Notes under the pieces: generated by a model
Told to the model about the DNA's origin: nothing
The model's database searches: none
Seen by the model: the letters and a program-made list of their open reading frames with translations, nothing else
Made by a program: the position numbers and the translations under genes
Shown: piece after piece, positions 32,989-43,863 of the stretch
How the letters are laid out: every line of letters begins with the position of its first letter
Position numbering within the stretch: position 1 is the stretch's first letter
NCBI GenBank assembly: GCA_963812035.1
Contig: CAWETG010000010.1
Coordinates: 323,534-387,533 of the forward strand
DNA length: 64,000 nucleotides
Direction: 5' to 3'
Source: an uncultured Gemmatimonadales bacterium
Lineage (GTDB): Bacteria > Gemmatimonadota > Gemmatimonadetes > Gemmatimonadales > JACORV01

Positions 32989-33171
32989 TAACGCTGGGGT
33001 GTTATGCTGCTGGCGTACGCAAGGTCGCCACGGCTGCATACGGACGACCGGTGCCGGAAGTCGTTCTGGCATCGAGATTTGCGGTCGCGGGGGATGCCGC
33101 GCGGTCGGCGAAAGGCTGCAGCCGAATGCGCTGTCGGCGCCCAAGACTGTTCAGCATACTACTAGTTAGGC
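32989..33171 (+). other. probable attC site (divergent sequence type), R'' half split by IS110 copy a
   Basis: (cc)C|TAAC at the IS junction, and GTTAGGC at 33165-33171. The inner dyad is gttatgctg / cagcatac. It is longer (~185 nt) than, and unrelated in sequence to, the other attCs, so an attI-like site cannot be excluded. Confidence 0.4.
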
Positions 33172-33182
33172 GGCATTCACCT

Positions 33183-33680
33183 ATGCACTTGAGATCTTGG
33201 CTGGCATCTGCTGTAACTGCAGTCGCCTGCGCCCACGCCGCGCCGGCCCCGCCGCAGGCCCGCCTACCGGGCGCCGAGTGCTACGCTTCCCGTAGCATCA
33301 CTTGGCCCCTCGGTGACACCACCACCTACCGTGGCATAGTCCTAGGGTCGTGGCTTGTCCTGACGCCGGAGCCCTACGCCGCCGGCAGTTCCCGGCTCAG
33401 GGCGTTCGCATACGACAATAATGGCAATGCTCAGGAAGGCACGTGGTGGCAGGACGGCGACACGCTCACGTTGACGTTGGCCGTGCACGACCTGTTCAAC
33501 TATGCCACCCTCTTGCTGACACGGACGGCGACAGGTCTTGTCGGAACGGGTTCCGGTACCACTGACGTGCTCGTTCAGACTGCGCCTGGTCACTACTATG
33601 AGGGCACTCGCCATGCATGGGTCGCTCGCTTCGAACGCGTTGAGTGCGAGCGGTTACCGGCATGGCATCACGGCAGTTGA
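33183..33680 (+). CDS. cassette ORF: small secreted/lipoprotein, unknown function
   Basis: Track ORF 32985..33680 trimmed to ATG 33183, 12 nt after the GTTAGGC core. The signal is MHLRSWLASAVTAVACAHA. 165 aa, followed by an attC. Confidence 0.55.
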   Translation: MHLRSWLASAVTAVACAHAAPAPPQARLPGAECYASRSITWPLGDTTTYRGIVLGSWLVLTPEPYAAGSSRLRAFAYDNNGNAQEGTWWQDGDTLTLTLAVHDLFNYATLLLTRTATGLVGTGSGTTDVLVQTAPGHYYEGTRHAWVARFERVECERLPAWHHGS

Positions 33681-33690
33681 TTGGAATGCC

Positions 33691-33817
33691 GCCTAACCAG
33701 CGCCTGCAGCGGGCGGGCACGGCCGCGTGACGCCGCCTAACGCTCGGGGGTTAGGCTGGTTGGTGGTGGATGGCGGGGCCCGCGGCCGGCCCGCCGCTGA
33801 GGCGCGATTCGTTAGAC
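33691..33817 (+). other. integron attC site A (127 bp, subtype 1)
   Basis: R'' GCCTAAC 33691-33697 and R' GTTAGAC 33811-33817. Imperfect dyad cagcgcctgcagcgggcgggc / gcccgccgctgaggcgcg with unpaired bases. The first ~70 nt closely resemble site E. Confidence 0.8.
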
Positions 33818-42654: not shown

Positions 42655-42787
42655 CCGCCGGCCTTACGGCGGGACGGCCGCTGGTGGCTCGTGGCGTTCT
42701 GTGGCTGGACAGTTGACCTGAGGTAATGCAGGTATTGTGGGGATGGCGGGCAGTCGCTCGCCGACCCGGTGAGGCACGTCGTCCGGA
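42655..42787 (+). other. decayed attC-like relic G
   Basis: ...ggctggacagttgacctgaggtaatgcaggtattgtggggatggcgggcagtcgctcgcc...gaggcacgtcgtccgga aligns with the 3' two-thirds of sites B-D. The cores are degenerate. Confidence 0.45.
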
Positions 42788-42865
42788 CACGATGCGCGGT
42801 GCACAGTCAGGGTGGCGGCGGCCGAGGCGACCGAACACGCCGAACCATCGCTGTGATCGCGCCCA

Positions 42866-43801
42866 ATGGAGACTCCCGAAATGAAACAGCTCAAGGTCGT
42901 GCTGGCCCTCATCATGCGGGACAACGACTATCAGCGCGAGCAGGCGTCGGTCGCGGAAGCAACCGCGCAACGCCTGGGAATCGGCCTGCAGGTGCTCTAC
43001 GCAGACAACGACGCCATCGCACAGACGAAGCAGATTCTGGCCGCGATTCACGCCGCAGCGCCCGATCGTCCTGACGCCGTCATCGCGGAACCGGTGGGCA
43101 CGGGGATGCTGGGTGTGGCCAGCGCCGCCGCCGACAACGGAATCGGATGGATCGTGCTCAATCGTGAGGCGGACTACCTGGCCCCATTGCGTCAGGGGTC
43201 GTCCGTGCCGATCGGGAGCATCGAATGCGACAACGCGGAGGTCGGGAGAATACAGGGCAGGCAGTTCGCCGCGCTCCTGCCCTCGGGCGGCACCGTCCTG
43301 TACATCGAGGGGCCCGCCACTGATGTCGCCAAGCAGCGCCGGGCCGGGCTGGATGAGACGCTACCGGCTAACATCAGGATTCAGTCGGGCCGGGGAAAAT
43401 GGACGGAGGAGAGCGCCTTTCAGGTCGTCGCGGCGCGGCTGCAGCTGCAGGGGCCGACGCCGCCGAGCATCGGGCTCATCGGGTGTCAGAACGATGCGAT
43501 GGCGATGGGTGCCCGGAAAGCGGTGGAAGCTCTGACGGCCGCCCAGCAACGGGCGCAATGGCTGAAGATGCCGTTCACCGGCGTGGACGGCGTTCCCACC
43601 AGTGGCCAGGTCTGGGTGCAGCAGCGACTGCTCGCCGCGACGGTCGTGATTCCCGCGCTGACCGGGGTGGCTCTCGAGTTGCTGGCGAAGGCGATCGCGA
43701 CCGGCACCCCAATGCCCGAGCACACCCTCACCAGACCGACCTCATATCCTCCGATCGAGGAGCTGCGCGGGAGAGTGTCGGCAGAGCCCGCGCGCGGCTG
43801 A
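42866..43801 (+). CDS. periplasmic-binding-protein/LacI-fold sugar-binding-like protein (no obvious signal peptide)
   Basis: 311 aa. Alternating beta-alpha pattern with VVLALIMRDNDYQ, GWIVLNR and GCQNDAMAMGA, typical of Peripla_BP_1/4 domains. Confidence 0.65.
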   Translation: METPEMKQLKVVLALIMRDNDYQREQASVAEATAQRLGIGLQVLYADNDAIAQTKQILAAIHAAAPDRPDAVIAEPVGTGMLGVASAAADNGIGWIVLNREADYLAPLRQGSSVPIGSIECDNAEVGRIQGRQFAALLPSGGTVLYIEGPATDVAKQRRAGLDETLPANIRIQSGRGKWTEESAFQVVAARLQLQGPTPPSIGLIGCQNDAMAMGARKAVEALTAAQQRAQWLKMPFTGVDGVPTSGQVWVQQRLLAATVVIPALTGVALELLAKAIATGTPMPEHTLTRPTSYPPIEELRGRVSAEPARG

Positions 43802-43863
43802 GCCCAGCGCCTGCCTGGCGGCGCCCGCAGCGCGCGAGCGCTCGCGGCTCGCCCGGGCACCGG

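Follow-up and report, generated by a model that had tools for sequence, protein, structure and literature searches.

Evidence for an integrase-less integron cassette array with an attI-like leader in a Gemmatimonadales genome

We analyzed a 64-kb stretch of contig CAWETG010000010.1 from an uncultured soil Gemmatimonadales bacterium (hereafter the window; GC content ~70%). With a probability of about 0.88, positions 31.8–43.8 kb represent the integrase-proximal end of a cassette array that belongs to a Gemmatimonadales-type family of chromosomal integrons and has no integrase in cis. The array runs from an attI-like leader ending in GTTAGGC, through five short cassettes with attC sites of 127–132 nt, to three cassettes that are larger and older and have decayed attC sites. 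It falls under the definition of a cluster of attC sites lacking an integron-integrase (CALIN), which calls for two or more attC sites spaced less than 4 kb from each other, with no intI or intI pseudogene nearby (Cury et al. 2016, PMC4889954). An earlier note, made from the sequence alone, had read the repeats as attC and the region as an integron cassette array, and this reading is upheld by hairpin folding, by covariation and by matching sites that lie beside independent intI genes.

Results

One family of attC sites

Between 33.7 and 38.7 kb the window holds five copies of a single attC family, two of them intact (B and E), two split by IS110-family insertion sequences (IS; C and D) and one cut by an IS3-family element (F). 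The 25-mer TAACCAGCGCCTGCAGCGGGCGGGC, which comprises the R'' and L'' arm, occurs exactly at 33694, 34300, 36357, 38270 and 38634 (0 expected from 100 shuffles), and the L'+R' arm GCCCGCCGCTGAGGCGCGATTCGTTAG is present at 33789, 36457 and 38370. Sites B, C, D and E are bounded by an inverse core RYYYAAC, as GCCTAAC or GTCTAAC, and a core GTTRRRY, as GTTAGGC or GTTAGAC; TAAC and GTTAG are invariant among 105 family members. Six paired sites had been claimed. The cores stand at B, C, D and E, but the site at 38631 has no R', having been cut by the IS3 element, and the pair at 32987/33165 is not an attC, as described below. The two proposed subtypes were recovered, of ~127 nt at 33691 and 38631 and of 132 nt at 34297, 36354 and 38267. 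A site spacing of 0.6–0.8 kb was not borne out, as the cassette spacing measures 0.36–0.76 kb, and a supposed relic at ~43783–43860 shares one 10-mer with the family and gives no covariance-model match at 43780–43860. The subtype-1 sites also contain, at 33735–33756 and 38676–38697, an internal mini-palindrome, GCCTAAC-N8-GTTAGGC, which mimics a second R''/R' pair in the variable region.

In the folded bottom strands of B–E, an R box of 7 bp is followed by an internal loop that is asymmetric (5 nt versus 2 nt) and by a stem of 6 bp, bulge, 5 bp, bulge, 6 bp; the two bulges, of one base each, are both on the 3' ('') arm, and the part beyond the stem is variable. The R box, unpaired spacer and extrahelical bases on one arm that had been anticipated for these strands were all present in B–E. 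The hairpin was not formed on folding by two decayed sites farther along the array (40346–40480 and 42661–42775). By the established integron mechanism, which we take to apply here, the attC bottom strand would fold to such a hairpin, with its 7-bp R box, unpaired spacer and two single-base bulges on one arm of the stem; an IntI tyrosine recombinase would recognize it and cut in the AAC/GTT core, excising or inserting cassettes.

We then examined whether pairing is conserved across the family. A scan of a genome collection with a 19-mer from the R''-L'' arm recovered 61 loci, including very large arrays in Gemmatimonadales metagenome-assembled genomes (MAGs). Extraction anchored by BLAST yielded 101 non-identical relatives, which together with the four window sites gave a 105-member alignment; a regular-expression scan for R''...R' pairs was uninformative, the cores being mutually reverse-complementary. 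The consensus structure has 19 pairs and 98.8% of its cells are paired, a value that falls to 27–48% in controls in which the pairing was slid. Double-change cells numbered 52, as compared with 15.1±2.6 in shuffles, and 0 of 500 shuffles reached as high a count. Compensatory changes replaced GC with CG or the converse 36 times and CG with UA 9 times.

A covariance model, R1, was built from this alignment and run on the window with filters off. It stands in for the attC model of IntegronFinder, and Rfam, which holds no attC family, gave no match in the window at gathering thresholds. R1 matches were confined to the array, the next being noise (E 0.038). Among them, the two decayed sites and the half-site F lie outside the training set. 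The seven matches span 33691–42775 with a widest gap of ~2.2 kb, which is the attC spacing of a CALIN.

The same sites accompany integron integrases

We next asked whether members of the family lie beside integrase genes. With IntI1, used only as a tblastn probe, a single strong match was obtained among the loci, in L056. The open reading frame (ORF) in question matches TIGR02249, "integron integrase", at 446.7 bits (cutoff 265) over profile positions 1–314 of 315, and ~0.6 kb downstream of it lies an attC 97% identical to window attC B. A metagenome scan with the L056 IntI recovered 80 further intI loci, at 56–74% identity. In these, R1 found 37 sites (E<1e-3), all of them downstream of intI and co-oriented with it, and none upstream in the 80 loci, at least 16 of which carry 6 kb of upstream flank. 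R1 therefore recognizes the attC sites of independent integrons. A fragmented, frame-shifted intI was also seen at 1847–2433 of L002, where an attC of the same family follows 2.4 kb downstream; the contig had been binned as Bacteroidetes.

The layout of this clade is atypical in that intI is transcribed toward attI and co-oriented with the cassettes: intI, leader and cassettes follow one another in one direction in L056, L065, L140, L101, L114 and others. Transcription of intI toward attI is known as the Treponema denticola type (PMC3607928). The relatives of the window array resemble that type in their co-oriented intI, leader and cassettes; the window differs from it in having no intI, and in its Gemmatimonadales-like character, a placement drawn from 81% synteny to a MAG that is labelled Gemmatimonadales, with 70% GC and long (127–132 nt), highly conserved attC sites.

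These observations bear on whether the repeats could be a family of non-integron palindromes, similar to repetitive extragenic palindromes or miniature inverted-repeat transposable elements, that merely look like attC. High copy number in several MAGs and highly conserved arms would suit such a family. Against it are the canonical RYYYAAC/GTTRRRY cores, the strand-asymmetric bulges, the presence of one co-oriented ORF per unit, the restriction of the sites in independent loci to positions downstream of, and co-oriented with, TIGR02249-type integrases, and an exchange of cassettes exactly at the GTTAGGC core (see below). We give this explanation almost no credence.

An attI-like leader abuts mobA in place of intI

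The window array appears to start with a diverged, attI-like copy of an integrase-proximal leader that abuts mobA, a MobA/MocA-like nucleotidyltransferase gene, and not intI. Homologues of this leader are found immediately downstream of intI in L056, L065, L140 and L064, and also head the intI-less arrays L005 and L026. In L056 the region from the intI stop codon to the first GTTAGGC starts ...aaacgctgcaag..CCTAACGCCTCCCTAACGCT... We constructed a leader-core profile from L056, L065, L140, L005 and L026, with the window copy excluded. Beyond its own members this profile found L064 and the window from which IS110-family element #1 had been deleted (31810–31821 joined to 32988–33015, E 4.9e-4), and nothing else in ~1 Mb of loci; a three-sequence leader profile had missed the window copy, which the five-sequence core block found. 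In every intI-bearing relative, the distance from intI to the leader downstream of it is 40–900 nt, and the two have the same orientation. In L064 (3578–4430), ~850 nt with small ORFs separate the intI stop codon from the leader core, and the intI-leader distance is variable in the clade.

The leftmost CTAAC...GTTAGGC element had been listed among the paired sites. Tested as a long attC, it has no R1 match and folds into a multibranched structure (z -1.78) with no attC hairpin, and we reject it as an attC: the pair 32987/33165 belongs to the diverged leader, which IS110 #1 has split. We also considered whether IS#1 marks a rearrangement junction at which intI was removed. The leader continues on both sides of the element, and the Gemmatimonadales MAG locus L026, which is syntenic to window 26264–31646 (81% nucleotide identity), has the same junction without an IS, in the order mobA, 57 nt, leader, cassettes. 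Because IS#1 sits inside the leader, it is not the junction sought. The expectation that intI and attI should lie to the left of the first cassette is thus correct for the attI-like leader, but the position of intI is taken by mobA.

Searches for the integrase itself were uniformly negative. No tyrosine-recombinase domain (PF00589) or TIGR02249 match was found in any long ORF of the 64-kb window (Pfam; NCBIfam on the last three ORFs), and tblastn over the same 64 kb with IntI1 and clade IntI gave a best E of 0.4, with clade IntI. A profile of 44 clade IntI proteins, searched against six-frame stop-to-stop fragments of the window, returned a best E of 4.1 for intI or an intI remnant; profile searches of this six-frame type near CALINs are the test for intI pseudogenes used by Cury et al. 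(PMC4889954). Between mobA and the leader, neither tblastn nor the six-frame profile detected a remnant. The Pfam, tblastn and six-frame results agree with the earlier note that the 64 kb contain no integrase, and the array is a CALIN in the published sense, one of the two readings that the note offered, both in its attC spacing and in having no intI or intI pseudogene.

Could the locus be a complete integron whose intI escaped detection or lies just beyond the window? The contig measures at least 0.2 Mb, of which the window covers only 64 kb, and half of published CALINs are in genomes that encode IntI (PMC4889954). Nonetheless, nowhere in the window does an intI adjoin attI and cassettes; the place of intI is occupied by mobA, together with housekeeping genes over 32 kb, the 20 kb on the right-hand side are likewise without intI, and the six-frame profile was negative. 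Nor would the locus become complete if intI were present elsewhere in the genome. We consider a complete integron very unlikely.

Insertion sequences at several attC positions

Three IS110/IS1111-type elements and one IS3-family element interrupt the array. The former have the features of the IS110 family, namely DEDD and Transposase_20 domains, a long non-coding region and a sequence-specific target. IS#1 is 83% identical at the nucleotide level to an IS at the equivalent leader position, the first CTAAC, in L005. The proteins of IS#1 and IS#3 are 75% identical; in these two elements and in the L005 copy the 3' flank is CTAACG, and each end has a CT core. IS#2 is inserted in the L' stem at gcccgccgCT^gaggcg, and an 84.5% identical IS occupies the same attC position in L001. 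The junction of IS#3 is confirmed by L144, an 8.7-kb contig from another assembly, in which R' of attC D is an uninterrupted GTTAGGC. At least three IS110/IS1111 lineages have hit at least three distinct attC positions.

The IS1111-attC group (ISPst6, ISKpn4) targets attC (Tetu & Holmes 2008; Post & Hall 2009; PMC11187229). IS#2 resembles that group in its DEDD transposase, the non-coding region downstream of tnp and the fixed attC position. In contrast, IS#1 and IS#3 have the IS110-type layout, with the non-coding region upstream, and their target is CT^AACG, within R' or the leader.

Several further observations concern these elements. The motif CGTTAGC occurs in the otherwise diverged non-coding regions (gaccg..CGTTAGC..gggcgtc) of IS#1 (31860–31990), IS#3 (37440–37600) and the L005 copy (2720–2880). 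As the complement of the 3' flank CTAACG, it is a candidate guide of a bridge/seek RNA aimed at the attC R' core. In L144 (2130–3493) a fourth IS110-family element, encoding 352 aa, lies between GCCTAACC and AGCGCC of an attC, that is, between R'' and L''. A scan of 31.6–40 kb also gave a sub-threshold Rfam match to sX15, a Xanthomonadaceae small RNA, at 31858–31994 on the minus strand (35.3 bits, gathering score 55, E 0.0049). It falls within the non-coding region of IS#1 on the strand opposite the transposase, and sX15 itself may be IS110-derived.

The right flank of the IS3 element differs in L144, and the IS3 therefore rearranged the array. The right part, from cassette 6 onward, may not be the original neighbor of attC F. 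The stretch of the window from the IS3 element to the GH53 gene, including the junction between the array and GH53, is matched 100% by an independent Logan assembly contig (L143). Overall, the array is undergoing degradation by insertion sequences homing to attC, with only B and E still intact.

Apparent cassette exchange behind a conserved leader junction

Comparison with related loci points to turnover of cassettes. Despite the common mobA-leader junction, the window and the syntenic L026 have no cassettes in common by tblastx; a common junction with different cassettes implies turnover after the junction was formed. L144 provides a second case. It is 100% identical to window 34333–35827 and then, exactly at GTTAGGC, joins the cassette that encodes a ribbon-helix-helix (RHH) antitoxin and MazF; this junction lacks the ParE cassette and IS#3. 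As judged from the two sequences, recombination at the core between two attC sites would be expected to yield this arrangement. The RHH-MazF cassette of L144 is 100% identical to that of the window and stands behind a different attC.

Other relatives of the window cassettes were also found. The RHH-MazF cassette occurs twice in L144 (100% and ~96% identical) and, at 83% nucleotide identity, in L033. The L033 copy (518–1276), preceded by a high-GC attC of the family, is on a 63-kb contig binned as Nitrosotalea, an archaeon, reflecting either mis-binning or cross-domain carriage. Homologues of the cassette 6 ORF lie within the L057 array and in the first cassette after intI in L082.

Since the window array has no intI in cis, any recombination of it has to be supplied by an IntI from elsewhere in the genome. 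A related MAG, MFD01299.bin.1.239, is laid out in just this way. It contains L056 (CAWDZR010000022.1) together with L005, L020, L028, L043 and L057. The only intI found, that of L056, is followed by a leader and a single cassette, and dozens of attC sites are on other contigs, in arrays without intI that are leader-headed or large. One array, L005, is headed by a leader that holds an IS110 pseudogene.

We take up here the activity of the window array. It could be a dead fossil in which intI was lost long ago, the sites are no longer recombined, and decay proceeds by IS insertion and point mutation. The leader and attC C, D and F are each put out of action by an IS, four insertions in all, the two distal attC sites are without R''/R' cores and no longer fold, and there is no intI in 64 kb. 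However, attC B and E are intact and 87–97% identical to sites in other genomes, including the L056 site beside intI; L026 has the mobA-leader junction with other cassettes; and L144 differs precisely at a cassette boundary in the same population. The IS transposase ORFs are intact, and the insertions therefore look recent. We regard a fossil array as possible but doubtful.

Alternatively, the locus might be a satellite integron platform, an attI-bearing array that two or more Gemmatimonadales species keep at one chromosomal position, downstream of mobA, and whose cassettes are still inserted and removed in trans by an IntI from another locus. We raise this tentatively, as an outcome that is conceivable and not probable, because the mobA-leader junction is common to L026 with zero common cassettes, because L056 and L005 are in one MAG, and because L144 is a precise variant. 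If the locus is such a platform, a single integrase would act on several attI platforms within each genome.

Discussion

We conclude that the window carries an integron cassette array with an attI-like leader and no integrase in cis. Several considerations weigh against this conclusion or its reach. The window leader is the most diverged copy and its final E-value, 4.9e-4, is modest. Much of the array may already be inert, given its four IS insertions and the decay of two attC sites. And because R1 was trained with four window sites, its scores for B–E, the strongest in the window, are circular; the independent matches are those to the decayed and truncated sites and those at intI loci.

CALINs, their proposed origins, Gemmatimonadota integrons, co-oriented intI and attC-homing IS are all already documented. 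Like published CALINs (PMC4889954), the window array has two or more attC sites within 4 kb of one another, neither intI nor an intI pseudogene nearby, mostly ORFan cassettes, and IS elements within it. It differs in that it keeps an attI-like leader, and in that the junction of leader and chromosome is conserved in a second species with other cassettes. Less ordinary, on the sequence comparisons made here, is precisely this apparent retention of an attI-like leader in the absence of intI, at a locus that is conserved in two species with different cassettes, and so is the targeting of different attC positions by at least three IS110/IS1111 lineages. In CALINs other than those of integron classes 1–3, attI is not usually assessed (PMC4889954).

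The origin and activity of CALINs are debated, with off-target insertion, intI loss and rearrangement as the alternatives. Retention of the leader argues that off-target insertion of single cassettes was not the origin of the window array, and the array appears to have changed cassettes after losing intI in cis. The insertion sequences have a broader interest. An attC family colonized by several RNA-guided IS110/IS1111 lineages, each at its own position, is a natural test set for the reprogramming of bridge/seek RNAs, and the same set is informative on how integrons in soil bacteria are eroded and fragmented by IS elements.

Cassette contents and flanking genes

Coordinates of the array and its flanks are compiled in Table 1. 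Seven of the eight cassette units are co-oriented, in line with the earlier observation that most ORFs point to the following attC, and two stop codons (34300–34302 and 38270–38272) are, as had been noticed, the TAA of R''. Neither Pfam nor NCBIfam assigns a family to the small cassette ORFs, and this includes the cassette 1 ORF. No significant R1 match follows the last co-oriented gene, which encodes a periplasmic binding protein.

Two cassettes had been described as toxin-antitoxin (TA) pairs with their own promoters. Pfam identifies them as ParE with RHH and RHH with MazF, and sigma-70-like promoters lie ahead of both (4 sites versus 0.4 expected). TA cassettes are found in sedentary chromosomal integrons, such as those of Vibrio (PMC13108822). 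The window pairs are similar to these in being carried as cassettes with their own promoters, one in reverse orientation; the window differs in having two TA pairs among only five short cassettes, and their function is predicted. Each with its own promoter, the two would probably stabilize the array.

Table 1. Features of the array and its flanks, in window coordinates.
Feature	Position	Strand	Evidence or remarks
XdhC-like gene, left chromosomal flank	29995–31053	+	Pfam XdhC_C/XdhC_CoxI
MobA/MocA-like nucleotidyltransferase (mobA), left flank	30812–31645	+	Pfam NTP_transf_3
attI-like leader, 5' part (ctgacgccccc)	31810–31821	+	Leader profile on IS-deleted window, E 4.9e-4
IS110-family #1, in leader at CT^AACG; transposase 32019–32975 (+), non-coding region upstream	31822–32987	+	Pfam DEDD_Tnp_IS110 + Transposase_20; NCBIfam NF033542, 224.7 bits
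attI-like leader, 3' part, CTAACGCT...GTTAGGC	32988–33171	+	Homology to leaders downstream of intI; GTTAGGC 33165–33171 is the presumed crossover core
Cassette 1 ORF, 165 aa	33183–33680	+	ORF and GC content at third codon positions (GC3)
attC B, subtype 1, 127 nt, intact	33691–33817	+	GCCTAAC 33691 / GTTAGAC 33811; R1 85.4 bits; fold z -4.85
Cassette 2 ORF, membrane-like, no Pfam family	33727–34302	+	Stop TAA within R''
attC C, subtype 2, 132 nt once reconstructed	34297–34409 + 35808–35826	+	GTCTAAC 34297 / GTTAGGC 35820; R1 80.9 bits; fold z -1.77
IS1111-like #2, in attC C L' stem; transposase 34669–35730 (-), 250-nt non-coding region downstream of tnp	34410–35807		CT at both junctions; Pfam
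Cassette 3: ParE toxin 35834–36163 + RHH antitoxin 36078–36308	35834–36308	-	Pfam PF05016 + PF20605
Promoter-like site, cassette 3	36343–36315	-	Promoter scan
attC D, subtype 2, 132 nt, split within R' (GTTAG^GC)	36354–36483 + 37638–37639	+	GCCTAAC 36354 / GTTAG 36479 + GC 37638; R1 134 bits; fold z -2.56
IS110-family #3, in R' of attC D; transposase 36480–37436 (-), non-coding region upstream	36484–37637		Pfam
Promoter-like site, cassette 4	37659–37687	+	Promoter scan
Cassette 4: RHH antitoxin 37701–37949 + MazF/PemK toxin 37934–38272	37701–38272	+	Pfam PF01402 + PF02452, 103.9 bits
attC E, subtype 2, 132 nt, intact	38267–38398	+	GCCTAAC 38267 / GTTAGGC 38392; R1 126.8 bits; fold z -2.40
Cassette 5 ORF, 67 aa, membrane-like	38411–38614	+	Sequence; called as gene in L144
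attC F, subtype 1, R''-L'' half only	38631–~38701	+	Exact arm match; R1 20.3 bits, E 0.0023
IS3-family element; orfA 38785–39054, orfB 39048–39908; left end approximate	38702–39930	+	Pfam HTH_Tnp_1, rve, rve_3; right end by window/L144 flank divergence
Cassette 6 ORF (sixth cassette)	40020–40328	+	Homologues in arrays; gene call in L143
Decayed attC after cassette 6, R''/R' cores gone	40346–40480	+	R1 48.9 bits, E 2e-10; no hairpin
Cassette 7: TMEM260-like glycosyltransferase	40543–42654	+	Pfam
Decayed attC after cassette 7, R''/R' cores gone	42661–42775	+	R1 49.4 bits, E 1.5e-10; no hairpin
Periplasmic binding protein, last co-oriented gene	42881–43801	+	Pfam
GH53 gene, beyond array end	43864–45051	-	Pfam

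Elsewhere in the window, positions 16367–18952 on the minus strand hold a single ORF of 861 aa in which an aspartokinase (AA_kinase, ACT) is joined to a diaminopimelate/ornithine decarboxylase-type domain, apparently a fused lysine-pathway enzyme.

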